This document shows, in pieces, positions 4,645-56,291 of a stretch of DNA of 64,000 bases (position 1 is the first letter of the stretch; the number at the start of each line of letters is the position of its first letter). The position numbers were made by a program, and so were the translations under genes. The stretch is from Qingshengfaniella sp. (GTDB lineage: Bacteria; Pseudomonadota; Alphaproteobacteria; Rhodobacterales; Rhodobacteraceae), in contig JBKDZR010000043.1 of the NCBI GenBank assembly GCA_047971485.1, forward strand, positions 163 through 64,162, given 5' to 3'. The notes below the pieces were generated by a model. It was given only the letters and a program-made list of their open reading frames with translations, was not told where the DNA came from and did not search any database.

Positions 4645-4775
4645 GTTCGCGTCCTTTCGAGAGTCTCTGTCCCCCTTTTACCGAAACGGTGCGCGGCTGC
4701 AACGTGCTGCGGACCCGGGGCTGTTGAAAGGCTGGATTTCAGCCGGGGCTGACGATAAGGTCGCCGCAGGTTGAC

Positions 4776-5737: not shown

Positions 5738-5763
5738 GGTGCCGAAACAAGGGCAGGAAGAAA

Positions 5764-21487: not shown

Positions 21488-21684
21488 CCTGTCGTGCTGA
21501 TGCGGGGCCGTTGGGCCCTGCATCGGTGGCGCGGATAACATCTCATTAAGGACCGTGTTCGGATGAGCACGGGTTACCGGCGCCTCAACCCTGAATGGTG
21601 CGCAAGATTGCCAGCCCGGGGATCGGCGGCTATCACCAGCCGGTCCACGTGTTGGCGTTAGCACTGTTTCGTGAGGTTCGGGCC

Positions 21685-24102: not shown

Positions 24103-24128
24103 ACGACGCGGGTAGACAAGGGACCGAC

Positions 24129-26357: not shown

Positions 26358-26398
26358 CGAAGACGGGATAGGACGGACACACCACGGGGGGAGGAACC

Positions 26399-29100: not shown

Positions 29101-29110
29101 CGATCTGAAA

Positions 29111-31177: not shown

Positions 31178-33063
31178 CTGGGCCTGTCGCGGAACTGGCG
31201 CGTCGGGCCGGTATCCTGTCACGTTATCGCGGAACCGATCAGCGTTGGGTTGACGTTCCGCCCGAGACAATCGTGGCGGTGCTGTCGGCCATGGGGCTTC
31301 CGGCGGATGGGGCCGGTGCGGCGGCCTTTCTGTCCGAGACCGGCACAAGCCATCGGCTGCTGCCGCATTGGCATGTTGCCGGGCTTGGCCGCGCGCCTGA
31401 CCTGTCATTGCCAGAGGATGCGGTCTGGGCGCTGTGTCTGGAGGACGGGACCCAAACCGAGGGCCGTGGTCCGACAGTGCCGCCACTGCCCCTGGGGCGT
31501 CACAACTTGACCTGCGGTGCCGAGACCTGCTGGGTGTTGGTCGCGCCCCCCGCCTTGTCGGATCTGGGCCGGGGATGGGGGCTGACCGTGCCGCTTTACG
31601 GACTGCGCGCGCCGGCCATGGGGGGGCTGGGCGATTTCGGCGATCTTGGGCTTGTCATGGCGGGGCTTGCGGCTGTCGGCGCAGGCTTTGTCGGGATCAA
31701 TCCAATCCATGCCGGCTTTCCCACCGCACCGGAGATGTTCAGCCCCTATGCCCCATCAAGCCGACGGCGGCTGAACCCGCTGCATCTGAGATGTGGGGCC
31801 GATGATCAGGGCCGGGGGAGCGATCTGGTCGATTATCCGGCCAGCACGGGGACGCGGCTGGCCAGCTTTCGTGCGGCGTTTCAAGGGGCTGCGCTGGATC
31901 CGGCCTTCCAGGCTTGGCGCGCTCAGGAAGGCCCCGATCTGCAGCGTTTTGCCACACATCAGGCGATCAGCGGGGTCCATGGGCCGCTCTGGCACCGCTG
32001 GCCTGCGGCGTTGCAGGATCCTGACGCCGCCGAAGTGGCGGCTTTTGCCGGAACACATGGCGAAGACATCGGCTTCCACGCCTGGCTGCAATGGCAAGCC
32101 GAGGGCCAGCTGGGCCTGTTGGCCGAACAGGCGCGGGCCCTGTCCTGCGGGCTGTATCTGGACCTGGCCGTTGGCACCCATCCGTATGGTGCGGAAACCT
32201 GGGCGGCACCGGCGCAGTTCGTTCGGGGGGTGTCACTGGGGGCGCCGCCGGACGGGTTCGCCCCCGAGGGCCAGACCTGGGGGTTGGCCCCGTTCAACCC
32301 GCTGACGCTGGCAGCGCAGGGCTTCGCGCCTCTGGCCGAAACCCTGCGCTGCCAGTTGCGCTTTGCCCGTTTGCTGCGGATCGACCATGTGCTGGGCTTT
32401 GAGCGGGCCTTCTGGGTGCCTGAAGGCGGGGGGCTGCCGGGGACCTATGTCACCATGCCGCGCGCCGCGATGCTGGCCGTCGCCCGGATTGAGGCCACCC
32501 GCGCCGGCGCCACGCTGATCGGTGAGGATCTGGGTAATATCCCCGAGGGCCTGCAAGAGGCTCTGGCCAACAGTGGGATCCTGGGCTGCCGTGTGGCCCA
32601 GTTCGAACGTCACTGGCAAGAGGATGGTCGTTTTCGCGCCGCCGCCGATTATCCCGCCGATACGCTGGCCTCTTTCGGGACCCATGATTTGCCGACCTGG
32701 GCAGGCTGGCGCGCGGGGCGGGATATCGGTGTGGGCCGTGATCTTGGGCGGATCGGCGCCGAACAGGCCGAGATCGCAACAGCGGCGCGGATGCGGGACG
32801 TTGCGGCCTTTGATCGGGTTGCAGGCACGGGCACGGACGGCGATGATGCGCTGAACAGTTTTCTCGCCCGGACCGGATCACGGCTGGTTGCGTTACAAAT
32901 CGAGGATATCCTGGGGCTTGCGGATCAGCCTAACCTGCCGGGAACGGTGGATGAATACCCCAACTGGCGTCGCCGGCTGCCCCTGGGTCCGGCCGAATTT
33001 GTACAAGATCCCCGCCTTCTGCGGGCGGCGGACATCATGGCCCGAAACGGGCGGAGGACCTGA
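31174..33063 (+). CDS. malQ: 4-alpha-glucanotransferase (amylomaltase)
   Basis: GTG 31174 overlaps the glgX TGA (GTGA). GH77 motifs LRIDHVLGFERAFWVP, IGEDLGNIPEGL and FGTHDLPT. Confidence 0.9.
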   Translation: MTGPVAELARRAGILSRYRGTDQRWVDVPPETIVAVLSAMGLPADGAGAAAFLSETGTSHRLLPHWHVAGLGRAPDLSLPEDAVWALCLEDGTQTEGRGPTVPPLPLGRHNLTCGAETCWVLVAPPALSDLGRGWGLTVPLYGLRAPAMGGLGDFGDLGLVMAGLAAVGAGFVGINPIHAGFPTAPEMFSPYAPSSRRRLNPLHLRCGADDQGRGSDLVDYPASTGTRLASFRAAFQGAALDPAFQAWRAQEGPDLQRFATHQAISGVHGPLWHRWPAALQDPDAAEVAAFAGTHGEDIGFHAWLQWQAEGQLGLLAEQARALSCGLYLDLAVGTHPYGAETWAAPAQFVRGVSLGAPPDGFAPEGQTWGLAPFNPLTLAAQGFAPLAETLRCQLRFARLLRIDHVLGFERAFWVPEGGGLPGTYVTMPRAAMLAVARIEATRAGATLIGEDLGNIPEGLQEALANSGILGCRVAQFERHWQEDGRFRAAADYPADTLASFGTHDLPTWAGWRAGRDIGVGRDLGRIGAEQAEIATAARMRDVAAFDRVAGTGTDGDDALNSFLARTGSRLVALQIEDILGLADQPNLPGTVDEYPNWRRRLPLGPAEFVQDPRLLRAADIMARNGRRT

Positions 33064-33067
33064 AAGA

Positions 33068-34699
33068 ATGCAGCGTTTGACCATAGCCACGCACCCGATC
33101 GACGGGCAGAAACCCGGAACCTCGGGGTTGCGCAAAAAGACCCGTGTGTTCATGGGCCCCCATTACCTGGAAAACTTTATTCAGGCGATCTGGCAGGGGA
33201 TTGGTGGCATTGCCGGCAAGACCCTGGTTTTGGGGGGCGACGGGCGGTATTTCAACGATCGGGCGGCGCAGTTGATCCTGCGCATGGCGGCGGCCTCGGG
33301 GGCGAAGAAGATCATCGTCGGGCGCGATGCCCTGTTGTCGACCCCGGCAGCCTCCAACCTGATCCGCAAGCGCGCCACCGATGGCGGTATCATCCTGTCG
33401 GCCAGCCACAATCCTGGCGGCATGGATGAGGATTTTGGCATCAAGTTCAACATGCCCAATGGCGGTCCGGCCCCTGCCGAGGTGACCGACCGGATCTTTG
33501 CTGCCACCACCAGCCTGACCTCCTATGACATCATCGAAGCACAGGATGTGGATCTCTCCGCCCCTGGAAAGACGGTTCTGGCCGGGATGGAAATCGAGGT
33601 GGTCGATCCGGTTGTGGATTACGTTGCGCTGATGGAAGAGATATTCGATTTCAAGGCGTTGCGAGCCCTTTTCGCCAACGGGTTTACCATGAAATTCGAT
33701 GCCATGCACGCAATCACCGGCCCCTATGCGGCGGCGATTTTCGAAGATGCCCTGGGGGCGGCGCCGGGCAGTGTGATCAATGCAACGCCCAGCCCGGATT
33801 TCGGCGGCGGGCACCCCGACCCGAACCCGATCTGGGCCAGGGATCTGGTGGATCTGATGATGGGGCCCGAGGCGCCGGATTTCGGCGCCGCCTCGGACGG
33901 AGATGGGGACCGTAACATGATCGTCGGCCGGGCGGCCTATGTGACCCCGTCGGACAGTCTGGCAGTGCTGGCGGCCAACGCCCATCACGCCCCGGCCTAT
34001 GCCGGTGGGTTGAAGGGGGTGGCGCGTTCCATGCCGACATCAAAGGCGCTGGACCGGGTGGCCGCAGCCCGGGGGCTGGCCTGTTATGAGACGCCGACGG
34101 GCTGGAAATTCTTCGGCAACCTGCTGGATGACGGGCGCATCACGCTGTGCGGTGAGGAAAGCGCGGGGACCGGATCGGATCATGTGCGCGAAAAGGATGG
34201 GGTCTGGGCCGTGCTGCTGTGGTTGTCGGTTCTGGCTGGAACGGGCAAGTCCGTGGGCGCGATCCTGGCCGATCACTGGGCCGAATTCGGGCGCAACTAC
34301 TATTCCCGCCATGATTACGAGGCGGTGGACAGTGCAGCGGCTAATGGGCTGATGGACGGGCTGCGGGCGCGGCTGGGCGATCTGCCTGGGCAGGCGGTTG
34401 CCGGGTTGACGGTCGAAACGGCTGATGAGTTCGCCTATGACGATCCGGTCGATGGCAGCCGGGCCGAGGGGCAGGGCATTCGCATCGGCTTTGCCGGGGG
34501 GGCGCGGGCCGTGTTCCGGCTGTCCGGCACCGGGACCGAGGGTGCGACCTTGCGTGTTTATCTGGAAAGCCTGGAAACCGATCCAGCCGCCCAGGCCAGG
34601 GATCCGCAGGCGGCGCTGGCGCCGGTGATCGCTGCCGCCGATGCCATTGCCGGGATCGCGGAGCGGACGGGACGACAGGCGCCCGACGTGCGCACCTGA
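33068..34699 (+). CDS. pgm: phosphoglucomutase (alpha-D-glucose phosphate-specific)
   Basis: GQKPGTSGLRKK, phosphoserine loop ILSASHNPGG, Mg loop AASDGDGDRNMI, and CGEESAG. Confidence 0.95.
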   Translation: MQRLTIATHPIDGQKPGTSGLRKKTRVFMGPHYLENFIQAIWQGIGGIAGKTLVLGGDGRYFNDRAAQLILRMAAASGAKKIIVGRDALLSTPAASNLIRKRATDGGIILSASHNPGGMDEDFGIKFNMPNGGPAPAEVTDRIFAATTSLTSYDIIEAQDVDLSAPGKTVLAGMEIEVVDPVVDYVALMEEIFDFKALRALFANGFTMKFDAMHAITGPYAAAIFEDALGAAPGSVINATPSPDFGGGHPDPNPIWARDLVDLMMGPEAPDFGAASDGDGDRNMIVGRAAYVTPSDSLAVLAANAHHAPAYAGGLKGVARSMPTSKALDRVAAARGLACYETPTGWKFFGNLLDDGRITLCGEESAGTGSDHVREKDGVWAVLLWLSVLAGTGKSVGAILADHWAEFGRNYYSRHDYEAVDSAAANGLMDGLRARLGDLPGQAVAGLTVETADEFAYDDPVDGSRAEGQGIRIGFAGGARAVFRLSGTGTEGATLRVYLESLETDPAAQARDPQAALAPVIAAADAIAGIAERTGRQAPDVRT

Positions 34700-43760: not shown

Positions 43761-44135
43761 TCAGACTCGACGGTCCAGCAGCAGCGGTGCCATGGGATCC
43801 AGGCGTTCGGTGCCCTTGCTGGCGATGGGGCCGAAATCCTCGGCGGCCTGTTCCGCGATGTTGGCAAAGATTTCGCGCAGATGTTCGAACCCTTCAATGA
43901 CCCGTTCCATCCGGTCAAAGGAGGTCACGGTTTCGGTCGGGCCGGTCATCCGCGGGTCATAGATCGCGCGGGCGGCCAGGGCGGCGGCTATCATGGCGTC
44001 GCGGGTGCCGAGGCGAACATCGCGGTGGTCTTCGGGGAGCGGGCGGTCGGCGATCGCGGCAGGGGCTGCGATGGCGGGTGCGCGGCGCGCGACGGGGACA
44101 GCGTGGAGCGGGGCGAGGGAGCCAGTCACATACAT
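43761..44135 (-). CDS. hypothetical protein (124 aa)
   Basis: ATG 44135 sits 6 nt after GGAGAA. The C-terminal half looks protein-like (ERVIEGFEHLREIFANIAEQAAEDFGPIASKG). No family recognised; the overlapping plus-strand ORF looks like a shadow frame. Confidence 0.45.
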   Translation of the reverse strand: MYVTGSLAPLHAVPVARRAPAIAAPAAIADRPLPEDHRDVRLGTRDAMIAAALAARAIYDPRMTGPTETVTSFDRMERVIEGFEHLREIFANIAEQAAEDFGPIASKGTERLDPMAPLLLDRRV

Positions 44136-44338
44136 CTGAAATTCTCCATGCATTCGTTTCTATTTTTAGACGAATGCAGGAACAATCCGGCTAAATTGTG
44201 GCAAAACGTCAACTGTATGCAAGTTTGGTAAAATTTTAGCGCAATGCCCGGGATTACCCCCGGGAAGGGATCCGGCGCTTGACTGTCCCGGTCCGGATGC
44301 TAGCGTTCAGGGGTCTCACAGCAGTGGAAAACCGTGCC

Positions 44339-45667
44339 ATGGCCCTTGATCGTCACGCCATTCCCAATGACCTATCCGCTTTCTGGATGCCCTTCACCGC
44401 GAATCGCCAGTTCAAGGCCAATCCGCGGATGCTGGTCGATGCCGAAGGCATGTACTACACCGCCGCCGATGGCCGGCGCATTCTGGATGGCACGGCAGGG
44501 CTTTGGTGTTGCAATGCCGGGCACAAGCGGCCCCGGATCAGCGCGGCGATCAAGGCCCAGGCCGATGGGCTGGATTATGCGCCGGCTTTCCAGATGGGCC
44601 ATCCGCAGGCATTTGAACTGGCCAACCGGTTGCGCGATCTGGCCCCGGACCCTTTCGAACATGTGTTTTTCACCAATTCCGGATCTGAAAGCGTCGAGAC
44701 CGCCCTGAAATTTGCCATCGCCTATCAAAGGGCCCGGGGCGAAGGGGCGCGGACCCGGCTGATCGGGCGCGAACGGGGCTATCACGGGGTGAATTTCGGC
44801 GGGATCTCGGTGGGGGGGATCGTGTCGAACCGGCGCCAGTTCGGCACGCTTCTGACCGGGGTTGACCATCTGCCCCACACCCATCTGCCCGATCTGAACG
44901 CCTTTAGCCGGGGGCAGCCGGAGCATGGCGCAGATCTGGCTGACCGGCTGGAAGACATTGTCGCGCTGCATGGGGCCGATACCATCGCGGCTGTGATCGT
45001 CGAACCGGTGGCCGGATCGACCGGGGTGCTGATCCCGCCCAAGGGCTATCTGGAAAAGCTGCGGGCCATCACCCGCAAACATGGGATCGTGCTGATCTTT
45101 GATGAGGTCATCACCGGGTTCGGCCGGGTTGGCACGCCTTTTGCGGCCGAGCATTTCGGGGTGATGCCCGACCTGATCGCCTGTGCCAAGGGGCTGACCA
45201 ACGGGGTGATCCCCATGGGCGCGGTTCTGGCCACTGCCGAGATCCATGACGCCTTCATGCAGGGTCCGGAGCATATGATCGAACTTTTCCATGGCTACAC
45301 CTATTCCGGCAATCCGATGGCTTCGGCGACAGGACTGGCGACACTGGAAACCTATCGCGAAGAGGGCTTGCTGACCCGGGCGGCGGATCTGTCGGACTAT
45401 TGGGCCGAAGCGCTGCACAGCCTGCGCGATCTGCCCCATGTCATCGATATCCGCAATCTGGGCCTGATCGGTGCGATTGAACTGGCGCCGATCCCGGGCA
45501 AGCCTACCGCCCGTGCATTCCAGGCCTTTCTCGATGCGTTCGAGGCGGGGCTGCTGATCCGGACAACGGGGGATATCATCGCGCTCAGCCCGCCATTGAT
45601 CATCGACAAACCCGAGATCGACCGCTTGTTCGACACCCTGTCGGGCGTGCTGCGCAAGCTGGCCTGA
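44339..45667 (+). CDS. class-III (omega) aminotransferase, beta-alanine/omega-amino acid--pyruvate type
   Basis: AFWMPFTANRQFKANPRML, GLWCCNAGH, FTNSGSESVETALK, FDEVITGFGRVG and PLP-Lys context ACAKGLTNG. Confidence 0.9.
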   Translation: MALDRHAIPNDLSAFWMPFTANRQFKANPRMLVDAEGMYYTAADGRRILDGTAGLWCCNAGHKRPRISAAIKAQADGLDYAPAFQMGHPQAFELANRLRDLAPDPFEHVFFTNSGSESVETALKFAIAYQRARGEGARTRLIGRERGYHGVNFGGISVGGIVSNRRQFGTLLTGVDHLPHTHLPDLNAFSRGQPEHGADLADRLEDIVALHGADTIAAVIVEPVAGSTGVLIPPKGYLEKLRAITRKHGIVLIFDEVITGFGRVGTPFAAEHFGVMPDLIACAKGLTNGVIPMGAVLATAEIHDAFMQGPEHMIELFHGYTYSGNPMASATGLATLETYREEGLLTRAADLSDYWAEALHSLRDLPHVIDIRNLGLIGAIELAPIPGKPTARAFQAFLDAFEAGLLIRTTGDIIALSPPLIIDKPEIDRLFDTLSGVLRKLA

Positions 45668-45911
45668 CCTTGAGGCGTGTCTTTGGCTCGGCGCTGCTTG
45701 GCTAAATTTGGCCTGGCCCCGCCGGGCTGTGTTTCGCGCCCCGGGGCGTTCGTTCAGACAGAGACAGCGCGCCCTTCTGTCGTTTGAGGGGCAGGATCCC
45801 CGGATGCTGACGGCGCCAACTGCACCGTCATGAAAATCGTTGAAATTTGGTTGATTCCCATGATCAGGCCTGCCACAAATTTTCTATTGATCGGTAAAAG
45901 GATGTCATTTT

Positions 45912-46598
45912 ATGGGGCTAAGAAGTTTTTTTGGCGCGGCAATACTGATTTTTCTGGGGGGCGGCGCCTCGGCCTCGACCATTTTCAGTTTCGAGGGGCC
46001 GGCTTATCAACCCCGAATCATGCTTGGGGTGGAGTCCCTGGCAAGCCGGGCCCGCATCTCGTTTGAACTGGACGGCGACAGACTGATCGCCGGCAGTTAT
46101 GAGGTTCATGGCTATACCGGAAAATTTGTCGATCTGCGTGTCAGCGAATTCGTCACTTATGTCCGCCCTGGCGTGTCTTTCGGCTTGGATATTTCGTTTA
46201 CCATCGACCCGAATACGCCGGAATGGGTGTGCAGCCCGTATCCGTATTGCGGGGCCGTGGACAGCCACATGATGGACGGGATGCCGCTGGAACCGGATCT
46301 GAATGCGCTTAGCCTCAAGGTCAGTGGCTTTTCGGCGCGCTCGGCCGGGGCGGGTGTGCGCGAGGCGGATCTGATCGCCTGGATGGATGGCCAAAGCGGC
46401 ACGCGTGTTGCGCTGGATTACGTCTTTGTCAGCCTGGCGAAAACCGTGCGTCATCTGGGGGGCTTTGAAGAGGGCGGTGCCTTTGACTATCGTGCAGCGC
46501 CGCCACCAGCCCCCAAGATCTCCCCCGTGCCGTTGCCGGCCAGCGCCTTGCTGCTGTTGGCTGGTTTGGGGCTGTTGCGCTTGCGGGGCCGAGCCTGA
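45912..46598 (+). CDS. secreted protein with canonical VPLPA-CTERM tail
   Basis: Signal peptide MGLRSFFGAAILIFLGGGASA. C-terminus PKISPVPLPASALLLLAGLGLLRLRGRA. AT-rich upstream region. Confidence 0.7.
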   Translation: MGLRSFFGAAILIFLGGGASASTIFSFEGPAYQPRIMLGVESLASRARISFELDGDRLIAGSYEVHGYTGKFVDLRVSEFVTYVRPGVSFGLDISFTIDPNTPEWVCSPYPYCGAVDSHMMDGMPLEPDLNALSLKVSGFSARSAGAGVREADLIAWMDGQSGTRVALDYVFVSLAKTVRHLGGFEEGGAFDYRAAPPPAPKISPVPLPASALLLLAGLGLLRLRGRA

Positions 46599-46691
46599 CC
46601 ATGAACTTGATTTGTGGGCGACCTCCTGGGCGCCGGCTTGGAACGGACCCGGATGGGTCCGTTTGTCCTTTTCGGGACGCGTAGGGCCCGT

Positions 46692-46976
46692 TCAAATGTC
46701 GGTTGCGCCGCAGGTGCGAATCTCGACCTCCTCGCCGTTGCCAGTGTAATAGGCGCAGCGGTTGGTCTGTTCGTGATGACGGGCCAGGACGCCGGCCCCC
46801 CCGGCGGCAAGGGCGGCGGCGGCTGTCCAGCCCGAATCGGCGCCAAGCATCTGGGCGGTGATGGCGCCGATCGCCCCCGCCGCAACCCCTGTGCCCACCT
46901 GTTCGCGTGTGTTGGGATCCATCTGGCAGGCTGTCAGCAGCACCGTGGCGGACAGGGCGAATACCGTGGTTTTCAT
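46692..46976 (-). CDS. small lipoprotein with glycine-zipper segment
   Basis: Lipobox LLTAC, GTGVAAGAIGAITAQMLGA...AAGGAGVLA, and a C-terminal Cys pair. GGAG upstream of the ATG. Confidence 0.7.
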   Translation of the reverse strand: MKTTVFALSATVLLTACQMDPNTREQVGTGVAAGAIGAITAQMLGADSGWTAAAALAAGGAGVLARHHEQTNRCAYYTGNGEEVEIRTCGATDI

Positions 46977-47272
46977 CTGGTTCTCCGTTTTTCGATGGGG
47001 GCACTATCGGGTGTTCGCCGGCCTCTGACCAGACCCGGGTGCGAGAAACACATTCGCCGTTCCACTGAGGCTTGTGACAGGATCAACGATTTATTTCTTT
47101 AATCTGTAAATTTGTTTTCTTGCGCCGCCCGCGTGTCATTGGCATTGTTTCCAAAGTCCCGTCGATTAACGAATGGGAAGCGAGACCGGGAAGATGTTTG
47201 GATTGGAAAGATGACCCGCAGATCGCTCTTTCGCGATCAGGGCGGGTGCCGTGCCGGGGGGGCGGGCAGGTA

Positions 47273-48586
47273 ATGCCGCGCGTCACAGATACCGGGGCGC
47301 GCATTCGCGAACGGCGCGGGGTTTTGGGAATCCGGCAGGCGGATCTGGCCCGAACTGTTGAGATTTCTCCATCCTACCTCAATTTGATCGAACACAACCG
47401 GCGCCGTGTTGGCGGCAAGTTGCTGGTGCGGATCGCGCGTGCATTGTCGATGGAGGTCGCCGCGCTGACCCAGGGGGCCGAGGCAGAGATGCTGGACCGG
47501 CTGAGCGTGGCGGCACTGGCCCAGCCGTCCGCCGGGGCCGAGCTTGACCGGATCGACGAGTTGGTCAGCCGGTTTCCGGGGTGGGCGCAGCTGGCCATGG
47601 GACAGCAGCGCCAGATTGCGGCGCTGGAGGAAAAGGTTGCGGCGCTGACCGACAGGCTGACCCATGACCCGTTCCTGTCGGCGACATTTCACGATTTGCT
47701 CTCCAAGGTGGCCTCTATCCGGTCGACTGCGGCGATTCTGGCGGAGACCGAGGATCTGGATGTGGTCTGGCAACGGCGTTTCCGGCGGAACCTGGCCGAG
47801 GACAGTCTGGCCCTGTCGGACGGGGCGGCGGCAATGGTGGCCTATCTGGAAGCCAAGGATCCCTCGGATCTGGGCATCGCCACGCCGCAGGAGGAACTGG
47901 AAGCCTATCTGGCGGCCGGGGCTTATCATGTCCCGGCGCTGGAATGCGAGGATGGCGCGGCACCTGAGGATCTTGTGGGGCAAGCCGATCTTCTGCGCTC
48001 GGACGAGGCCCGGCGGCGTGCGCGCCTGTATCTGGATCAGTACCGCTGCGATGCGCGGACCATGCCGCTGGGAGAATTTGGTGCGGCCGCCGCCGAAGAA
48101 CGGTTTGATCCGGCCCGCTTGGCCCGCCGTTTCGCGGTGGACATTCCGGCGGTCTTCCGGCGCCTGGCCAGCCTGCCCCGTCAGGCGTTGGGGGTTGAAC
48201 TGGGGCTGGTGATCTGCGACGGGGCCGGGGCGTTGATCTTTCGCAAACCGGCCGAGGGCTTTCCGCTGCCACGCTTTGGGGCGTCTTGTCCCCTGTGGCC
48301 GTTGTTTCAGGCGCTGAGCCATCCGATGACCCCGATCCGGACGGTCCTCGAACATGTGTCGAGCCCGGATGAAGGGTTCGTCACCTTCGCCTTCTGCCAG
48401 CCGGAGATGATCGGGGGGTTCGGTGATGCGGCGGTTCAGCAGTCGATGATGCTGATCGCGCCGGCAGGCATGGTGCCCGGGGCGTGGCCGGCGGATGCCG
48501 AACTGGTGGGCAGTTCGTGCCGGATCTGTCACCGGCTGTCCTGCCCGGCGCGGCGCGAGGATTGTGTTCTGGCGGACGGGATCTGA
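47273..48586 (+). CDS. XRE-family HTH regulator with large C-terminal domain (ScfR/DUF2083-like Cys motif)
   Basis: HTH IRERRGVLGIRQADLARTVEISPSYLNLIEHNRR. C-terminal ...GASCPLWPLF...SSCRICHRLSCPARRE. No HExxH seen. An H-box-like string FLSATFHDLLSKVASIRS lies mid-protein. Confidence 0.75.
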   Translation: MPRVTDTGARIRERRGVLGIRQADLARTVEISPSYLNLIEHNRRRVGGKLLVRIARALSMEVAALTQGAEAEMLDRLSVAALAQPSAGAELDRIDELVSRFPGWAQLAMGQQRQIAALEEKVAALTDRLTHDPFLSATFHDLLSKVASIRSTAAILAETEDLDVVWQRRFRRNLAEDSLALSDGAAAMVAYLEAKDPSDLGIATPQEELEAYLAAGAYHVPALECEDGAAPEDLVGQADLLRSDEARRRARLYLDQYRCDARTMPLGEFGAAAAEERFDPARLARRFAVDIPAVFRRLASLPRQALGVELGLVICDGAGALIFRKPAEGFPLPRFGASCPLWPLFQALSHPMTPIRTVLEHVSSPDEGFVTFAFCQPEMIGGFGDAAVQQSMMLIAPAGMVPGAWPADAELVGSSCRICHRLSCPARREDCVLADGI

Positions 48587-48653
48587 CCGGCCGGTGGGCG
48601 AAACGGTTGCGGTGGGCCCGGTGCCGCCGAAGCCAAGTGGAAGGTACGGGATC

Positions 48654-49022
48654 ATGACACGGCATGTCCTGCTGATCGAGGATGAACCGAATATCGTCGA
48701 GGCGATGCGTTTCATCCTGTCGCGGGATGGCTGGCAAGTCTCGTGCCATGTGGACGGGGCCACGGCGCTGGGGGCCATTGCGCGGATCCGGCCGGATGTC
48801 GTGGTTCTTGACGTGATGTTGCCCAATCGCAGCGGCTTTGACATTCTGCGCGACATTCGTTCGGATATCGACATGATGGCCCTGCCGGTTCTGATGCTGA
48901 CGGCGAAGGGGCAGGCCAAGGACCGGGAACGGGCCGAGGTTCTGGGGGTCAGCCGGTTCATGACCAAACCGTTCTCGAACAGCGAGTTGATCGAGATCCT
49001 GCATGAAATGGTTATCGCGTGA
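48654..49022 (+). CDS. stand-alone response-regulator receiver (CheY-like)
   Basis: 122 aa. LLIEDEP, phospho-acceptor context VVVLDVMLP, MLTAKG, TKPF. No output domain. Confidence 0.9.
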   Translation: MTRHVLLIEDEPNIVEAMRFILSRDGWQVSCHVDGATALGAIARIRPDVVVLDVMLPNRSGFDILRDIRSDIDMMALPVLMLTAKGQAKDRERAEVLGVSRFMTKPFSNSELIEILHEMVIA

Positions 49023-49315
49023 TGCGCCGGGATGAGCGCCTGTTCCTGGCATATCGCCCCTATCGGCAGCGCCGGGTGGCAGATGCGTCCCGGGCCTTGC
49101 CGGCGATTGGCCTGTTCCTGTTTCTGGTGCCCGTCCTGTGGAATCGCCCGGGGGCCGAGTCTGGCGCCGGGCCCGGGTTGGCGGTGCAATGGCTTTATGC
49201 CATCGGCGTGATCGTGTTTCTGGCCGCGCTGGCCGGACTGATCGCCTGGGGCTTGTCCCATGCCGGCGAGAACGGCGCAGAACGCCCGCCAGAGGCGGAG
49301 AAGGAGAGGGGCTGA
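49019..49315 (+). CDS. small (98 aa) two-helix membrane protein, translationally coupled to the kinase
   Basis: GTG/ATG at 49019/49022 overlaps the receiver TGA. Its own TGA overlaps the kinase ATG (TGATG at 49313-49317). Hydrophobic segments LPAIGLFLFLVPVLW and WLYAIGVIVFLAALAGLIAWGL. Confidence 0.55.
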   Translation: MMRRDERLFLAYRPYRQRRVADASRALPAIGLFLFLVPVLWNRPGAESGAGPGLAVQWLYAIGVIVFLAALAGLIAWGLSHAGENGAERPPEAEKERG

Positions 49316-52008
49316 TGCTGCCCTTCAACCTGCTTGTCGTGGTGTGCCTGGCCTATGCGGTGCTGTTGTTCGGCATCGCCTTTGCGGTTGAACGCCGGGC
49401 GCAGCGCGGGGCGGCAGGCTGGCTGTGCTCGCCCTGGATCTACACCCTGTCCCTGTCGATCTATTGCACGGCCTGGACCTTTTATGGCGCGGTTGGCTAT
49501 GCGGCGCGGTCTGGCCTGGAATATCTGACGATCTATATCGGGCCTGTTCTGGTCCTGGTCGGCTGGATCTGGATCGTGCGCAAGCTGGTGCATGTGGGAC
49601 GGGCGCAGCGCATCACCTCGGTCGCCGATCTGATTTCGGCGCGCTATGGGAAATCGGCCGTTCTGGGCGGGTTGGTGACCCTGATGGCGGTGGTTGGCAT
49701 GACCCCCTATATTGCCCTGCAGTTGCAATCCGTCACCCTGTCCTTCGGGGCCTTTGCCCATGGGCCGGTCGAACCCGGGCCGGAAACCATCCCGGGCAAT
49801 ACGGCGTTGTGGGTTGCGATCGGGCTGGCGATCTTCAGCATCCTGTTCGGGACGCGCAATCTGGATGCCAATGAACGGCATCATGGGGTGGTCATTGCCA
49901 TTGCGATCGAAGCCCTGGTCAAGCTGGCTGCGCTTGTTGCCGTTGGTGTCTTCGTCGTCTGGGGGCTGGGCCAGGGGCCGGCGGCCATGCTGGCGCGGAT
50001 CGACGCCTCGCCCATTGCCGCAATTCCCAGTGACAGCAGCCGCTGGATGACGCTGATCTTCGTGTCGGCGGCGGCCTTTCTGTGCCTGCCGCGGATGTTT
50101 CAGGTACTGGTCGTCGAGAATGACGATCAGCGGCATCTGATGACCGCCTCCTGGGCGTTTCCGCTGTACCTTGCCGCGATGAGCCTGTTTGTCGTGCCGA
50201 TTGCCGTCATCGGTCTGGATCTTTTGCCCGAGGGCAGCAACCCGGATCTGTTCGTGCTGAGCCTGCCTTTGGCCATGGATCGCGATGCGCTGGCCATGCT
50301 GGTGTTTCTGGGCGGGTTTTCCTCGGCCACCTCCATGGTGGTGGTTGCGGCCATTGCCCTGTCGACGATGATGTCGAACCATATCGTGATGCCGGTTTGG
50401 CTGGCGGCACAGGGCCGGGGCCGCCGCATGTCCGGCGATGTCCGCCATGTGGTGATCGTTTCGCGCCGCCTGTCGATCGCGGCGGTCATGGCGTTTGGCT
50501 ATGTCTATTATGACTTTTCCAGCGAAGGGACCGCGCTGTCCGCCATCGGGACGATCAGCTTCGTCGCGGTGGCCCAGGCCTTGCCCGCGCTGATGGGGGC
50601 GATCTTTTGGCGGGGGGCGACACGGGTCGGGGCCGGGCTGGGGCTGTCGATCGGGTTCGGCCTGTGGCTGTACACGTTATTCCTGCCCAGTTTCGGTGCA
50701 GATGTCCTGATCCCCCGGGAGATCCTGACCGAAGGCCCCTGGGGGCTGGGCTGGTTGCGCCCCCATGCCCTGTTCGGGTTGAGCGGGATCGACCCGGTGG
50801 TGCATTCGGTTCTGTGGAGCCTGAGCACCAACACCCTGGCCTTCGTGGTCGGGTCCATTTTCAGCCTGCCGACGCCCCTGGAACGCTTGCAGGGAGCGCA
50901 GTTCGTGAATGTCACCGATTACAGTGCCAGCCGGCGCGACTGGCGCGGGGGCGCGGCGGAAACCGAGGATCTGCTGGTCATGGCGCAGCGCATCCTTGGT
51001 CCGGCCGAAGCCCAGGCGCTGTTTCGCAAACAGGCCGAGGCCCAGGGGATTGCCGGGTATCTGCCGGATGCGACCCCCGGCTTTGTCGATCATCTGGAAC
51101 GACGCCTGGCCGGCTCGGTGGGCGCGGCGGCGGCCCATGCGATGGTTGGCCAGATCATGCGCGGGGCCGGGGTGACGGTTCAGGAACTTCTGGCAGTTGC
51201 CGATGAGACCGCGCAGATCATGGAATATTCCAGTCAACTCAAGGCGAAAGGCGATGAACTGGCCCGCACTGCCCGACAACTGCGTGAAGCGAATGAAAAA
51301 CTGACGGCGCTGTCTGTGCAAAAAGACGTGTTCCTGAACCAGATCAGTCATGAATTGCGCACGCCGATGACCTCGATCCGGGCCTTTTCCGAGATCCTGA
51401 TGGGGCAGGTGCCGGTCCCGGTTGCGGACCGGGTCCGCTATACCCGGATCATCCATGACGAGGCCTTGCGCCTGACCCGGCTGTTGGATGCCTTGCTGGA
51501 TCTGAGCGTTCTCGAACATGGCCATGTCCGCCCCGAGGTGGCGTGCGTGCCACTTTGCCAGGTGATCGACCGGGCGGTTGATGCCTCTTATGCGCAGGCG
51601 GGCCCGGCACGGTTGCGGATTCTGCGCGACAGGCCCTCCGAAGAGATCACCATCCTGACCGATTTCGACCGTTTGAGCCAGGTTTTCATCAATCTGATCG
51701 CCAACGCGCGCAAGTATTGTGACGCCGCCGATCCACGCCTCGATATCCGGGTCGAATCCGGGGTGCAGGGCGTAACAGTCGATTTCATTGACAATGGCAG
51801 TGGTATTGCCCTGAGCCAACATAACCTGATCTTCGAAAAATTTTCCCGGCTCAATGAGAACAGCCGGGCTGGGGGGGCCGGGCTGGGCTTGGCAATCTGC
51901 CGTGAAATCATGGAAAAACTGGGGGGAACGGTCAGCTATCTGCCTGGCCAGTCGGGCGGGGCCTTTCGTGTCAGCCTGCCGGCAGACGCGGTGCAGGATC
52001 TGGTATGA
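49315..52008 (+). CDS. sensor histidine kinase with N-terminal sodium:solute symporter (SLC5/SSS) domain (CbrA/CrbS architecture, no PAS, no receiver)
   Basis: AAGGAGAGG lies before the ATG. Roughly 13 hydrophobic segments, then a STAC-like linker (EDLLVMAQRILGPAEAQALF), a coiled coil, H-box ISHELRTPMTSIRAFSEIL, N-box INLIANARKY, and G-boxes DNGSGI and GAGLGLAICREI. Confidence 0.9.
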   Translation: MLPFNLLVVVCLAYAVLLFGIAFAVERRAQRGAAGWLCSPWIYTLSLSIYCTAWTFYGAVGYAARSGLEYLTIYIGPVLVLVGWIWIVRKLVHVGRAQRITSVADLISARYGKSAVLGGLVTLMAVVGMTPYIALQLQSVTLSFGAFAHGPVEPGPETIPGNTALWVAIGLAIFSILFGTRNLDANERHHGVVIAIAIEALVKLAALVAVGVFVVWGLGQGPAAMLARIDASPIAAIPSDSSRWMTLIFVSAAAFLCLPRMFQVLVVENDDQRHLMTASWAFPLYLAAMSLFVVPIAVIGLDLLPEGSNPDLFVLSLPLAMDRDALAMLVFLGGFSSATSMVVVAAIALSTMMSNHIVMPVWLAAQGRGRRMSGDVRHVVIVSRRLSIAAVMAFGYVYYDFSSEGTALSAIGTISFVAVAQALPALMGAIFWRGATRVGAGLGLSIGFGLWLYTLFLPSFGADVLIPREILTEGPWGLGWLRPHALFGLSGIDPVVHSVLWSLSTNTLAFVVGSIFSLPTPLERLQGAQFVNVTDYSASRRDWRGGAAETEDLLVMAQRILGPAEAQALFRKQAEAQGIAGYLPDATPGFVDHLERRLAGSVGAAAAHAMVGQIMRGAGVTVQELLAVADETAQIMEYSSQLKAKGDELARTARQLREANEKLTALSVQKDVFLNQISHELRTPMTSIRAFSEILMGQVPVPVADRVRYTRIIHDEALRLTRLLDALLDLSVLEHGHVRPEVACVPLCQVIDRAVDASYAQAGPARLRILRDRPSEEITILTDFDRLSQVFINLIANARKYCDAADPRLDIRVESGVQGVTVDFIDNGSGIALSQHNLIFEKFSRLNENSRAGGAGLGLAICREIMEKLGGTVSYLPGQSGGAFRVSLPADAVQDLV

Positions 52009-52064
52009 TGTTCAGGACTTCGTAACCCTGATCAGCCAAAGTCGGGGGATCCGAGAGCAGGCGA

Positions 52065-53057
52065 ATGGCGATCATGGCGCATTTGGAAAACACAGTTCTA
52101 CGCCGCAAGCTGGCGCATGACCGGCCCGATGATCCGGCGCGGCCAACGCCCGGTCGGGCCTTTCGTCAGGCGGTCACCCAGGCTGCCTTGCGCAACCTGA
52201 AACTGACGGTTTCAGCCGCGAAATTGGCCGAGACGCCACTGGCGGTGGAACAAATCCCGCCATTGCTGCCAGATAATGCCCTGTGTTTCGTCCTCGATGG
52301 GCCGGGGGACCGGCGGGGCGTGGTGATGCTTGATTCGGAAGGGTTGGCCAGTGTCGTGCAGGCCCTGACCACAGGTTTTGAGGGGGCCGAGCCGCCAGTG
52401 CGCGCACCGACCGCAACGGATGCAGAACTTTGCCGGCGCTTTCTGGCCGAATTCGTGTCCGGTTTTTCCAAGCGCCTGATCGGACATCCGGCCGAACCTC
52501 TGGTGCGGGGGCTTGTGCCGGGGCGTGCGCTGCGGATGATGCGGATGGTGACCAATGCGCTGACCGAAGGCCGCTATCGCGGGTTCACCGCAAAGCTGAA
52601 TTTCGCTGACGGGGCGGCATCGGGGCAGTTGTTTCTGGCCGTGCCTTGGGAAACCCCCGCACCGACCGGCAGCCTTGATGGGGCTGATGACGTGACGGGA
52701 TGGGACCAGCGGCTGGAAGCGCGGGTTCTGGCCAGTCATGTGGATCTGGATGCGGTTCTTGGCCGGCTGGTCTTGCCCTTGTCGAAGGTCGCCGGGTTGA
52801 AGGTCGGTGATCTGGTGACCTTGCCCTATCGCGCGCTGTCCGAACTGGTACTGGAGGCGCCCGATGGCACCACGGCGGGGCTGTGGCGGCTTGGCCAGGC
52901 CGAAGGCTGCCGCGCGATCAGGCTGTTGGCCGAGACGGCGGTCCCCGAGGATCTGGATGATGATGTCCAGGTGGATCCGGCAACGGGCGAGGCCCGGACC
53001 ACAGCCGCGCCGGAGGACATGGCGATGACGGCCCGGGTGTTGCCCGCTGCTGAATAG
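52065..53057 (+). CDS. FliM/FliN (SpoA) C-terminal-domain protein, FliM-like, orphan
   Basis: 330 aa. The C-terminal LDAVLGRLVLPLSKVAGLKVGDLVTLPYRALSELVLEAPDGTTAGLWRLGQAEGCRAIRL fits the SpoA/FliMN_C pattern. No other flagellar gene is in the window. Confidence 0.65.
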   Translation: MAIMAHLENTVLRRKLAHDRPDDPARPTPGRAFRQAVTQAALRNLKLTVSAAKLAETPLAVEQIPPLLPDNALCFVLDGPGDRRGVVMLDSEGLASVVQALTTGFEGAEPPVRAPTATDAELCRRFLAEFVSGFSKRLIGHPAEPLVRGLVPGRALRMMRMVTNALTEGRYRGFTAKLNFADGAASGQLFLAVPWETPAPTGSLDGADDVTGWDQRLEARVLASHVDLDAVLGRLVLPLSKVAGLKVGDLVTLPYRALSELVLEAPDGTTAGLWRLGQAEGCRAIRLLAETAVPEDLDDDVQVDPATGEARTTAAPEDMAMTARVLPAAE

Positions 53058-53150
53058 CGCATACTTGCGTGGAAAGCGGATCCTGGCTTTGGGTGTCGAC
53101 AAAAACGCCCAACCCGGAACAAGAGCCATAGACCCGTTGTGGCAGTTGTG

Positions 53151-53579
53151 TCAGCCGGCGGCGGCGAAAGATTCAAACTGCGGTCGCAGCGGTTCGTGAT
53201 GATAACCGGCGGCGGTGGTTGCCGCCAGCACGGCATCCACGCCCAATGTGCCGGCCATCAGAAACGACCATACGATTGAGGATCGGTTTCCCGAGGCACA
53301 ATAGGCGAGAACCGGTCCGCTTGATGCAGAGACCGCTTCGGCCTGAACGTGCAGATTTGCTTCGGACAAGGCGCCGGGCTGAACCGGATTTTCGATGAAG
53401 GTTAGGTCCGCCGCCTCGGCCGCCATGCGCAGGGCCTGGGCATGAAGGGCGGCCGGAATCTCGTTGTCCGGCCGGTTGCAGATGACCGTGGTAAAGCCGG
53501 CAGCCTTCAGCGCGGCCATGTCCTGTGGCGCGATCTGGGGCGAAACGGCATAGTCTGGAGAAAGCGGTTTGATATCCAT
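53151..53579 (-). CDS. TIGR01244/DUF442-family phosphatase-fold protein (sulfur-metabolism associated)
   Basis: MDIKPLSPDYAVSPQIAPQDMAALKAAGFTTVICNRPDNE...VLAYCASGNRSS (Cys-X5-R/S-like loop). Confidence 0.75.
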   Translation of the reverse strand: MDIKPLSPDYAVSPQIAPQDMAALKAAGFTTVICNRPDNEIPAALHAQALRMAAEAADLTFIENPVQPGALSEANLHVQAEAVSASSGPVLAYCASGNRSSIVWSFLMAGTLGVDAVLAATTAAGYHHEPLRPQFESFAAAG

Positions 53580-53640
53580 AGGTCCCGCAGTAGGCCTTTT
53601 GCGCCGTGCCGTCCAGATCCCACTGGGCAGGCACGGGCGG

Positions 53641-53856
53641 CTATCCCAACATGATCCCTGCAACCACGCCCATCAGCCCCAGCGCCGAGACCAGCAGGGC
53701 CACCAGGTTCAGCGTGATCACCCGTCTCAGCCGTTCGCGCAGTTCCGCATCGCCGAGCCCGGCGCGCTTGGCCCGGGCCGCGATGATGATACAGGCGATC
53801 AATCCCGCTACCCCGATCAGGGACAGCCCTGCGCCACTGAAGATCAATACATCCAT
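53641..53856 (-). CDS. small (71 aa) two-helix membrane protein, hypothetical
   Basis: GAAGGG upstream of ATG 53856. MDVLIFSGAGLSLIGVAGLIACIIIAARAKRAG...LNLVALLVSALGLMGVVAGIMLG. Confidence 0.4.
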   Translation of the reverse strand: MDVLIFSGAGLSLIGVAGLIACIIIAARAKRAGLGDAELRERLRRVITLNLVALLVSALGLMGVVAGIMLG

Positions 53857-54073
53857 TTTCGGCCCTTCGTCGGGAACGGCCCAGGCAGATATCCGTGAGA
53901 TTTCCATGAACACGCCTGGGGGCGTTTGGTTTAGGCTGGGGGATCCGAAAGCCGGCATTCCCGTTTCGGAGGCCGTGCTTAGTCCGTGCCCTGGGCTTGG
54001 GCAAGGGGGAACACGGCTTGCCCGCGCCTTCGGGTCTTTGTAGACCCTCCGGGTTGTCAGAGCAGGAGAGACC

Positions 54074-54343
54074 ATGCAGGACATGACCGGCGCGTCCGCC
54101 CCCAACAGTTATCACGTCACCGCCGATGAACTGCGCCAGTTCGTTGAACGCTTTGAACGTCTGGAGGCCGAAAAGCAGGAAATCGCGGGCCAGCAGAAAG
54201 AGGTCATGGCCGAAGCCAAGGGCCGTGGCTATGACGTCAAGGTGATGCGCAAGATCATCGCGCTGCGCAAACGTGACCGCGACGATCTGGCCGAGGAAGA
54301 GGCGATCCTCGAACTTTACAAGGAAGCGCTGAACATGACGTGA
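54074..54343 (+). CDS. gapR: GapR-family nucleoid-associated protein (DUF2312/UPF0335)
   Basis: LRQFVERFERLEAEKQEIAGQQKEVMAEAKGRGYDVKVMRKIIALRKRDRDDLAEEEAILELY closely parallels Caulobacter GapR. Confidence 0.9.
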   Translation: MQDMTGASAPNSYHVTADELRQFVERFERLEAEKQEIAGQQKEVMAEAKGRGYDVKVMRKIIALRKRDRDDLAEEEAILELYKEALNMT

Positions 54344-54462
54344 CCCGGTGGCCCCGATCTGCGCCTCGGATGGGGGCCGCAGGCGGGCGTCGCATCCGGG
54401 GTCGGCCCACCACCGGCCTGCCGCTTGTCGCGACACCCTGTGAAAGCAAGGCGATGTTGGGA

Positions 54463-54539
54463 TGGTAGGCCCGGAGGGACTCGAACCCCCAACCAAAGCG
54501 TTATGAGCGCTCTGCTCTAACCAATTGAGCTACAGGCCC
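54463..54539 (-). tRNA. tRNA with CAU anticodon (elongator Met or, more likely, Ile2/lysidine type); CCA encoded
   Basis: Reverse complement: GGGCCTGTAGCTCAATTGGTTAGAGCAGAGCGCTCATAACGCTTTGGTTGGGGGTTCGAGTCCCTCCGGGCCTACCA. It gives a cloverleaf with anticodon loop CTCATAA. It lacks initiator features (no GGG/CCC anticodon stem, no C1xA72). Confidence 0.9.
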
Positions 54540-54660
54540 GCCGTCCTTGGCATTAGCAGAACCAAAAGGGGGGTCAAGGGTGCGGCATGGGCCGTTGCCC
54601 TGCGCATCCAGATCGACTAGGCACCTGCCAACCCTTACTCCCCGCGAAGGACCAGATAAG

Positions 54661-55704
54661 ATGGCCGAGAAGACCAAGCTGACCTATGCCGACAGCGGTG
54701 TTGATATCGATGCTGGCAATGCGCTGGTTGAACGGATCAAGCCGGCCGCCCGGGCAACGAACCGTCCGGGGGTCATGGCCGGTCTTGGCGGGTTTGGTGC
54801 GTTGTTCGATCTCAAGGCGGCGGGTTATGTCGATCCGGTTTTGGTTGCGGCCACGGATGGGGTGGGCACCAAGCTGCGCATTGCCATTGATACCGGGCAG
54901 TTGGACGGGATCGGGATTGATCTGGTCGCCATGTGCGTCAACGATCTGGTCTGTCAGGGGGCTGAGCCGCTGTTTTTCCTGGATTACTTCGCTACCGGTA
55001 AGCTGTCTGTTGATGAAGGCGCCCGGGTGGTCGAGGGCATCGCCGAAGGCTGCGCCCGGGCCGGGGCTGCCCTGATCGGCGGGGAGACAGCGGAAATGCC
55101 GGGCATGTACGGCCCCGGGGATTTCGATCTGGCGGGATTTGCCGTGGGGGCGATGGAACGCGGACGGGCGTTGCCCGCGGATGTGGCTGCGGGGGATGTT
55201 CTGCTGGGGCTGGCCTCGGATGGGGTGCATTCCAACGGCTATTCGCTGGTGCGCAAGGTGGCCGATCTGGCCGGTCTTGGCTGGGAGGCGCCGGCCCCGT
55301 TTGCCGATGACACGTTGGGGGCGGCCCTGCTGACCCCGACACGCCTTTATGTCAAACCTGCGCTGGCCGCGATCCGGGCCGGGGGCGTCCACGCCCTGGC
55401 CCATATCACCGGGGGCGGGCTGACGGAAAACCTGCCCCGGGTTTTGCCCGACGAACTGGGCGCAGAGATCGACCTGAACGCCTGGGTCCTGCCGCCGGTC
55501 TTTCGCTGGCTGGCCGAAACCGCGGGGATTGAGACGGCAGAGATGCTCAAGACCTTCAATTCCGGGATCGGCATGATCCTGGTGTGCGCCGCTGACCGGG
55601 CCGATGCGCTGGCCGCGATCCTGACCGAGGCCGGTGAAACGGTACATCGGATCGGACAGGTGGTTCCGGGGCAGGGGGTACGCTATCGCGGCACGTTGTC
55701 GTGA
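54661..55704 (+). CDS. purM: phosphoribosylformylglycinamidine cyclo-ligase (AIR synthetase)
   Basis: [40 protein letters not shown]. Confidence 0.97.
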
Positions 55705-56291
55705 AACGGGTCGCGATCCTTGTTTCGGGGGGCGGATCGAACATGGTCGCCTTGGCCGACAGCATGATCGGGGACCATCCGGCCCGCCCCGCGCTGGTCC
55801 TGTCGAATCGCGCCGATGCGGGAGGATTGGCGCGGGCGGCCGAGCGGGGCATCGCGACAGCGGTGGTCGATCATCGGGGCTTTGGCGGCGACCGGGCGGG
55901 CTTTGAGACGGCGCTGTCTGCGGAACTGGAAAAGGCGGCTGCCGACATCGTCTGTCTGGCCGGTTTCATGCGGATCCTGACCCAAGGCTTTGTCGGGCGC
56001 TGGCAGGGGAGGATGCTGAACATTCACCCCTCCTTGTTGCCCGCCTATCGCGGGCTGGAGACCCATGCCCGGGCGCTGGCCGCGGGCGAGCAGATCCATG
56101 GCTGCACCGTGCACGAAGTGACCGCCGCGCTGGATGACGGCCCGATTCTGGGGCAGGCGCGGGTGCCAGTCCGGCCCGGGGATACGCCGGCGATCCTGGC
56201 CGCGCGGGTGCTGGAGATGGAACACCGGCTTTACCCGGCGGTCCTGCGCCGATTTGCAACAGGTGACCGGCGTCCTGTTCTGCTGGGCTGA
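55701..56291 (+). CDS. purN: phosphoribosylglycinamide formyltransferase
   Basis: GTG overlaps the pur[36 protein letters not shown]. Confidence 0.95.

Follow-up and report, generated by a model that had tools for sequence, protein, structure and literature searches.

A PAS-less SLC5/STAC transceptor kinase module and an adjoining fliM gene of Rhodobacterales are probably two autonomous units

The 64-kb stretch of DNA analyzed here (the window) stems from a Rhodobacteraceae metagenome-assembled genome (MAG) labelled Qingshengfaniella sp. and carries, at positions 47273–53057, five tightly packed forward-strand open reading frames (ORFs) for an XRE/ScfR-family regulator, a single-domain response regulator (receiver), a small membrane protein, a sensor kinase with an SLC5-type transporter domain and a FliM protein. 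This locus probably consists of two autonomous neighbouring units, namely an SLC5/STAC transceptor operon (unit A, 47273–52008) and an ordinary fliM gene (unit B). The new element is a widespread, unstudied SLC5/STAC transceptor kinase without a PAS domain, which is paired with a single-domain receiver and a ScfR-family regulator. The two-unit reading builds on the domain identities, folds, co-occurrence and separability described below, and would imply that the receiver does not signal to FliM. The compact layout given in the original prediction, which was made from the letters of the DNA, with five co-directional genes and junctions of +67, −4, −1 and +56 nt, is borne out by the ORF coordinates; the G+C content at third codon positions (GC3) is 0.72–0.80 across all five genes. 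The signaling route proposed there, leading from the kinase via a CheY-like protein to an orphan switch protein and thereby bypassing CheA, is not supported, since kinase module and fliM are separable, their adjacency is no tighter than plain synteny, fliM has a motif of its own and the receiver resembles CheY less than it does other receivers.

The kinase could be assigned to the same family as CbrA of Pseudomonas. In a sequence search of the Protein Data Bank (PDB), residues 6–461 matched the CbrA chain 10ED_A with E=2.7e-63, and with E=4.2e-88 when a 12-sequence profile was used. PDB 10ED shows the SLC5-STAC fragment of Pseudomonas CbrX-CbrA as determined by cryo-EM (PMC13488458). Foldseek searches with the predicted structure yielded SGLT2 (8hb0_A, E=3.3e-9 over 634 columns) as well as SGLT1, NIS and CHT1 for the membrane part, and HK853 and YycG for the C-terminus. 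A Pfam scan of the kinase returned HisKA (52.7 bits) and HATPase_c (77.9 bits) only, with no match to SSF (PF00474) and no STAC-type family. Because the Pfam models are silent, the SLC5 homology is shown via the PDB sequence search and the predicted structures. Among the family models that had been named for the five products, HisKA, HATPase_c, Response_reg, FliMN_C, HTH_3 and ScfRs were thus recovered, and SSF PF00474, FliM PF02154 and a STAC family were not.

In the AlphaFold2 (AF2) model of the kinase, which has an overall predicted local distance difference test (pLDDT) score of 70.6, 13 transmembrane (TM) helices are followed by an amphipathic linker helix (aa 521–535), a disordered stretch, four short helices and a single long helix (aa 622–696). 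The four short helices (H549–561, H563–576, H588–602 and H604–615; pLDDT about 70–80) form a putative STAC-like bundle whose topology agrees with the published description of the CbrA STAC domain, and the long helix joins this bundle to the DHp domain. No match to STAC alone was found by sequence or by fold, the HMMER alignment with 10ED ending at residue 468, and the STAC part is a candidate by predicted topology. Neither Pfam nor the AF2 model revealed a PAS domain, and a C-terminal receiver is absent, as HATPase_c ends at aa 890 of 897. The architecture proposed originally, a CbrA/CrbS-type succession of SLC5, STAC and HisKA/HATPase without PAS or receiver domain, is hence supported by the 10ED_A match, the AF2 model and Pfam, with STAC as its putative part. 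The phospho-acceptor H679 is invariant in the kinase alignment. When the pocket residues named in the CbrA paper were traced through the HMMER alignment, Y51, S53, W55 and Y75 were found to correspond to Y50, T52, W54 and Y74 of the kinase, and the Na2-site lysine K196 to K203. Since the pocket residues and this lysine are conserved, analogy to CbrA suggests that the SLC5 site is proton-coupled and holds a carboxylate-bearing solute. At E<=1e-10, relatives of the kinase amount to over 7,800 sequence clusters, and this kinase variant is nearly universal in Rhodobacterales.

The 98-aa protein encoded directly upstream of the kinase contains two hydrophobic segments (~aa 26–42 and ~55–78) flanked by charged termini. 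The junction between the receiver gene and the 98-aa gene reads GTGA or TGATG and the one between the 98-aa gene and the kinase gene TGATG, so that the 98-aa gene is translationally coupled to both neighbours. The protein is weakly conserved among relatives (30–54% identity) and had no match in the family libraries. Judged by its position and shape, it can be regarded as a positional analogue of CbrX, which binds the SLC5 domain of CbrA (PMC13488458). Its original description as a micro-membrane protein stands, and CbrX is a published precedent for it.

The receiver consists of a Pfam Response_reg domain only (85.8 bits over 122 aa), which agrees with the claim that the only receiver nearby lacks an output domain. 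Read from the translation, the residues E9/D10, D53, T83, F102 and K105 are intact. Its best matches are the receivers of YycF, PhoB, MtrA and RR468, those of YycF, PhoB and RR468 being the closest relatives of solved structure, and CheY scores ~30 bits lower; the sequence comparison thus places it nearer to the OmpR/PhoB and RR468 types of receiver than to CheY. An identity with Osp, a single-domain receiver that inhibits CckA, was considered and ruled out, since the acidic pocket residues and the lysine are missing from Osp, whose gene adjoins a TetR gene.

The regulator combines an N-terminal HTH_3 domain with a C-terminal ScfRs domain (PF09856). Its residues 238–427 match PrpR of M. tuberculosis (6CYY) with E=2.9e-16, the matched region being the CoA/[4Fe-4S]-binding part of PrpR, and its C-terminus is rich in cysteine. 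The regulator thus belongs to the PrpR/RamB (ScfR) family, as had been surmised from a Cys motif reminiscent of short-chain acyl-CoA regulators. It is not a RamB equivalog, for it reached 114.5 bits with NF038139 against a cut-off of 700 bits. A search of the region preceding the regulator gene gave no convincing repeated operator. The ScfR regulator and the receiver are separated by additional genes in some genomes (L171:2891–3298; L172:1727–2641, reverse strand; L016, ~4400–6349). Because such genes can intervene, and receiver, hairpin and kinase genes are always contiguous, the regulator gene appears to be a separate transcription unit. A ScfR-like protein of Paracoccus denitrificans, Pden_1785, was noted in passing as being clustered with a two-component system and left unstudied (PMC10370305). 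In 79 of 87 related loci, an ABC transporter directly precedes the regulator, being of the divergent Liv type in 52 and of the co-directional NMT1 type in 27; the window is one of the eight loci without either. In relatives, the gene adjoining the regulator on this side nearly always encodes an ABC binding protein, either a Liv-type Peripla_BP_6 protein (for instance L170:3425–4771, reverse strand) or an NMT1 protein (for instance L003:4071–5063, forward strand). As a best guess, these flanking transporters are candidate targets of the module.

Taken as a two-component system that senses nutrients by means of a transceptor kinase of the SLC5/STAC family, unit A might work as follows. A small carboxylate-bearing solute would be bound in, or transported by, the proton-coupled SLC5 domain with its CbrX-like hairpin subunit, and the resulting conformational change would be passed from the STAC bundle through the long helix to the DHp domain. 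H679 would then autophosphorylate and hand its phosphate to D53 of the receiver. The receiver may work with or alongside the acyl-CoA-sensing regulator, and our best guess for the output is that, jointly with this PrpR/RamB-type protein, the system controls the transcription of genes for nutrient uptake or catabolism. All studied SLC5/STAC kinases regulate how small organic nutrients are taken up or assimilated, CbrA being linked to histidine and carbon balance, CrbS to acetate and RpuS to pyruvate (PMC9100948). By this analogy, the four-gene module is probably a transport-coupled nutrient sensor.

The product of the last gene barely exceeded the threshold of Pfam FliMN_C (24.5 versus 23.8 bits) and did not match Pfam FliM (PF02154). 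A profile search of the PDB yielded a FliM-FliN fusion (4YXB, E=3e-5) and FliN (E=0.012). The AF2 model, built from a 53-sequence alignment, reached a pLDDT of 81.4, with values above 93 in the middle domain, and Foldseek ranked full-length Salmonella FliM first (8umd_C, E=5.6e-15 over 296 columns), followed by middle-domain structures of FliM from T. maritima, H. pylori and Vibrio (TM scores 0.66–0.72) and then by CheC and CheX. A middle, CheC-like domain (FliM_M, ~aa 29–200), which in FliM is the part touching FliG, and a SpoA/FliN domain (~aa 221–287) can be distinguished. Judged by the predicted structure, the gene encodes a complete FliM, and the proposed FliM/SpoA identity of this product was thereby substantiated. 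The start given by NCBI is the second ATG, at 52074. The N-terminus lacks the enteric motif LSQxEIDALL, which binds phosphorylated CheY. Where this acidic motif would be expected, FliM proteins of Rhodobacterales carry a conserved basic helix with the sequence VLRRK or the variants VLQRK, VIRRM and ALxxMAxRxR. A scan with one genome per species found FliM relatives in 382 genomes; all of those named to order or family level are Rhodobacterales, and a few are MAGs labelled only to class or phylum. An antisense ORF (52212–53129, reverse strand, 305 aa) with a GC3 of 0.73, as compared to 0.72 for fliM, was rejected as a shadow ORF because homology and structure back the forward strand. Composition-based gene calling chooses the wrong strand here and, together with the failure of the Pfam FliM model, may account for the frequent annotation of this fliM as hypothetical. 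In one related locus (L160:4394–5361), the fliM that follows the kinase is distributed over two frames (4394–5098 and 5023–5361), owing either to a frameshift that made it a pseudogene or to an error in the assembly.

The native flagellar type of Rhodobacterales is the fla1 type of Frank and Petersen, which is called Fla2 in Cereibacter sphaeroides. Del Campo and co-workers are said to have identified, in 2007, a stand-alone gene as the one for the Fla2 FliM. In the native system of R. sphaeroides, fliM and fliG lie outside the flagellar cluster and are activated by CtrA (PMC7277832), and the native Rhodobacterales cluster in general is without fliM, which is found elsewhere on the chromosome (PMC7277832). 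Likewise, the comparison table of a recent study on Rhodobacterales flagella gives no fliM counterpart for the archetypal fla1-type cluster. Since the native cluster is without fliM and the gene is displaced, the gene in the window is read as this ordinary fliM. A circumstance that the original prediction itself had named as speaking against a functional tie to the kinase, namely an ordinary fliM missing from its flagellar cluster, is in substance what this literature describes (PMC7277832). Unit B would accordingly be the fliM of the native flagellum, transcribed from a CtrA-type promoter in the 56-nt spacer, and its product would build the C-ring and receive its input from chemotaxis CheY proteins.

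Conservation of the gene order was examined in the best-scoring 80 of 382 and the best-scoring 80 of at least 569 matches, and as these samples are not random, the resulting locus percentages are indicative only. Regulator, receiver, (hairpin) and kinase genes lie directly upstream of fliM in 50 of the 64 fliM-anchored genome loci with enough upstream sequence, the remaining 14 having no kinase module at this position. Starting from the kinase, fliM follows in 49 of 61 metagenome loci with enough downstream sequence (44 found by tblastn with the window FliM, and five divergent ones by a profile hidden Markov model (HMM)), and where the upstream flank suffices, the receiver is present in 59/59 and the regulator in 57/59 loci. 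The order was encountered again in dozens of genomes and metagenome contigs of Rhodobacterales, among them Q. alkalisoli, Profundibacter amoris, Maritimibacter alkaliphilus, Cereibacter ovatus, Thioclava, Celeribacter and Tabrizicola, and is no chance arrangement; the neighbourhood conservation across Rhodobacterales that had been put forward for checking is thus evident. The two units can nevertheless be separated. In 12 of the 61 kinase-anchored loci fliM is missing, and in ten of these the kinase stop codon lies 2–104 nt from a convergent BLH-type phosphatase gene. In three loci (L036, L057 and L080) fliM directly follows an NMT1 gene, which in a fourth (L003) precedes the regulator, and the four-gene module therefore behaves as a single insertion/deletion unit. 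Other genomes keep fliM in different contexts, for example downstream of RNase J. Furthermore, fliM has the unrelated BLH phosphatase gene within 2 kb in 73 of 102 loci (72%) and gapR within 7 kb in 35 of 54, so that the kinase–fliM adjacency (78–80%) is no stronger than ordinary synteny.

These findings bear on the possibility that the SLC5/STAC kinase phosphorylates the receiver and that the latter docks on FliM, for example on its N-terminal helix, and biases or brakes the motor upon solute transport, with CheA being bypassed. Such docking is suggested by the same-strand adjacency of kinase operon and fliM in ~80% of the sampled loci despite a deep divergence of FliM, which shares only 28–39% identity with the window protein across these loci, by the receiver having no output domain and by the tethered N-terminal helix of FliM, whose layout resembles that of the canonical CheY-binding peptide. 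However, receiver and kinase are kept where fliM is cleanly absent and fliM is kept where the module is absent, the adjacency is no tighter than that with the unrelated BLH phosphatase gene, the promoter-like motif belongs to fliM itself, and CheY is a more distant match of the receiver than the OmpR/PhoB and RR468 types are. The strict N-terminal motif of FliM is also about equally frequent without (11/23) and with the module (70/124). In addition, the native flagellum of R. sphaeroides is, according to what del Campo and co-workers reportedly described in 2007, controlled by CheY1, CheY2 and CheY5. Docking is thus considered very improbable.

In related loci, a median of 75 nt separates the kinase stop codon from the start of fliM, and these spacers share the element [GCT]TAACC, often inside T[TC]AA-N7-[GCT]TAA. 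Of 131 unique fliM-upstream regions, 75% contain the pentamer TAA[AC]C, as compared to 8.6% of random windows from the same loci, and the rate of the pentamer is 73% with the kinase and 86% with another gene upstream. A strict search for TTAA-N7-TTAA yielded 1 of 43 spacers, and the conserved element is either a degenerate full site or the half site [GCT]TAACC. The consensus of CtrA sites is TTAA-N7-TTAA (PMC6180460), and the sequence TAA-N7-TTAA is found 54 bp upstream of osp (PMC9430884). From these motifs, fliM appears to have its own CtrA-type promoter. A prediction of sigma-70-type promoters over 46500–54600 gave none. Alternatively, fliM might be co-transcribed with the kinase operon by read-through, which would tie the stoichiometry of the C-ring to nutrient signaling without any protein-protein link. 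The short spacers are compatible with this scenario, as is the result that no terminator-like hairpin was predicted between kinase and fliM. Yet the conserved promoter-like CtrA motif in the spacer is also present below other upstream genes, fliM of R. sphaeroides was reported to be CtrA-activated (PMC7277832), and in some genomes fliM lies elsewhere, as in the case of RNase J mentioned above. Among the explanations considered, read-through is regarded as very improbable.

The CtrA-like box is also relevant for a further scenario, in which the receiver modulates the CckA-ChpT-CtrA phosphorelay in a manner similar to DivK or Osp, and nutrient supply tunes CtrA-dependent genes including the adjacent fliM instead of the motor. 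Single-domain receivers controlling CckA are known in Alphaproteobacteria, including Osp of R. sphaeroides (PMC9430884), SLC5/STAC kinases sense organic acids or amino acids (PMC9100948), and expression of Fla2 is repressed by organic acids as far as the title of Vega-Baray et al. (2015), cited in PMC9430884, indicates. However, Osp differs from the receiver in its missing acidic pocket residues and lysine and in its gene context, the module persists in lineages without fliM at the locus, and such a kinase is not among the eight essential non-cluster genes from motility screens of Phaeobacter inhibens. An action on the relay is therefore considered quite improbable. Even when docking on the N-terminal helix of FliM and action via the CckA-ChpT-CtrA relay are combined, a link of the transceptor kinase to motility through the receiver is unlikely. 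If it were true, Rhodobacterales would gain a transport-coupled, CheA-independent tie of nutrient uptake to swimming, and this would explain why operon and fliM stay adjacent in most lineages.

Some points weigh against two autonomous units. In ~80% of the sampled loci and in many genera, fliM follows the kinase on the same strand after a short gap (median 75 nt) with no predicted terminator, and this close adjacency means that read-through or a functional tie is possible. The CtrA-like box of the window itself is degenerate (TTCA-N7-GTAA), and the loci compared are the best-scoring and not randomly chosen ones. Moreover, the view is one of 64 kb of a MAG, and any flagellar cluster of the organism would lie outside of it.

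Table 1. Positions of the genes, domains and elements at the locus and in its downstream flank
Feature	Position	Strand	Basis or remark
XRE/ScfR-family regulator, 437 aa	47273–48586	+	Pfam
Single-domain response regulator, 122 aa	48654–49022	+	Pfam
Two-helix membrane hairpin protein, 98 aa	49019–49315	+	hydrophobic segments
SLC5/STAC-type sensor kinase, 897 aa	49315–52008	+	stop codon 52006–52008
Kinase SLC5 (LeuT-fold) domain, aa 1–517, 13 predicted TM helices	49315–50865	+	
Kinase predicted four-helix STAC-like bundle, aa 549–615	50959–51159	+	AF2
Kinase transmitter, HisKA aa 670–736 and HATPase_c aa 783–890	51322–51984	+	Pfam
Putative CtrA-box-like element, TTCA-GGACTTC-GTAA (TTCA-N7-GTAA)	52011–52025	+	39 nt 5′ of fliM ATG
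fliM, 330 aa	52065–53057	+	predicted structure, FliMN_C
FliM N-terminal helix aa 4–17, VLRRK motif, on disordered tether	52074–52115	+	
BLH-type phosphatase	53151–53582	−	
Membrane protein, 154 aa	53641–54105	−	
GapR-type DNA-binding protein	54074–54343	+	
tRNA-Met	54463–54539	−	

The block downstream of fliM, with the phosphatase, the membrane protein, GapR and tRNA-Met, is syntenic with fliM in many genera. In relatives the BLH phosphatase is accompanied by persulfide-dioxygenase-like and sulfur-transport genes, both of which are missing from the window. The tRNA-Met was the only match of an Rfam scan of 44000–56000. No flagellar or chemotaxis genes were found elsewhere in the window, and no che genes at this locus. 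The rest of the window is made up of housekeeping genes, including gyrA, an acetolactate-synthase-like gene, a glycogen operon, purMN and rnd. The glycogen-metabolism genes form a single-strand run (21595–34699, forward strand), for which Pfam indicates a glycogen phosphorylase, a branching enzyme, a glucose-1-phosphate adenylyltransferase-like protein, an isoamylase-type debranching enzyme and a phosphoglucomutase; an ORF inside this run (27589–29100) may be glgA. A 228-aa protein (45912–46598, forward strand) ends in VPLPASALLLLAGLGLLRLRGRA, which, judged by eye from the translation, resembles a VPLPA-CTERM sorting signal. For a 522-aa ORF (691–2259, reverse strand, GC3 0.75), a Pfam search gave no family at E<=1e-5.

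To our knowledge, only three systems with SLC5/STAC transceptor kinases have been studied, namely CbrA, CrbS and RpuS. For the comparison with CbrX-CbrA, PDB 10ED and three publications were used (PMC13488458, PMC6591292, PMC7096432). The kinase of the window shares with Pseudomonas CbrA the 13-TM SLC5 domain, the pocket residues, the Na2-site lysine, a predicted four-helix bundle after TM13 and the HisKA/HATPase part, and as in the case of CbrX, a small two-helix hairpin protein is encoded directly upstream with overlapping stop and start codons. In contrast to CbrA, there is no PAS domain between the STAC-like bundle and DHp. While CbrB is of the NtrC type (REC-AAA+-HTH), the partner here is a 122-aa receiver without output domain, whose gene lies upstream and not downstream of the kinase gene, and a PrpR/RamB-type regulator is co-inherited. 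The hairpin protein, with its 98 aa, is longer than CbrX and has no detected sequence similarity to anything. With the STAC-like bundle leading straight to DHp, the wiring of this kinase is the simplest in the SLC5/STAC family, and the protein could serve as a clean model for turning transporter motion into kinase activity. Its set of partners, a receiver-only protein and an acyl-CoA-sensing regulator, is an unusual one. The sensing of organic acids or amino acids by marine roseobacters might likewise be understood through this module.

A transporter-domain kinase is likewise found in CrbS/CrbR of Vibrio and Pseudomonas and in RpuS/RpuR of Sinorhizobium fredii, which control the use of short-chain carboxylates, namely acetate and pyruvate (PMC5715377, PMC9100948), and RpuS shows that the family is present in Alphaproteobacteria (PMC9100948). 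These papers describe CrbS as a hybrid kinase, and acs and mctP as genes whose transcription is activated by CrbR and RpuR, whereas the kinase of the window carries no receiver and its partner no DNA-binding domain. The regulator has the HTH_3 and ScfRs domains and the Cys-rich C-terminus of PrpR, RamB and PccR (PMC6765138, PMC10370305), but it adjoins a two-component system and not acyl-CoA assimilation genes, and the same applies to Pden_1785. The receiver is a single-domain protein like CheY, but best matches PhoB, YycF, MtrA and RR468, with no cheA or cheW at the locus.

As for unit B, the N-terminal motif VLRRK differs from the LSQxEIDALL of enteric FliM. The Pfam FliM model fails to detect fliM of the archetypal Rhodobacterales flagellum; this gene is also missing from recent cluster-based inventories, and its conserved address downstream of the kinase is a practical route to finding it. 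As a putative orthologue, the gene resembles the native Fla2/fla1-type fliM of Cereibacter sphaeroides (PMC7277832) in standing alone outside the cluster, in the two-domain fold of its product and in the CtrA-type motif upstream. In Cereibacter ovatus (L068), kinase and fliM are arranged as in the window.

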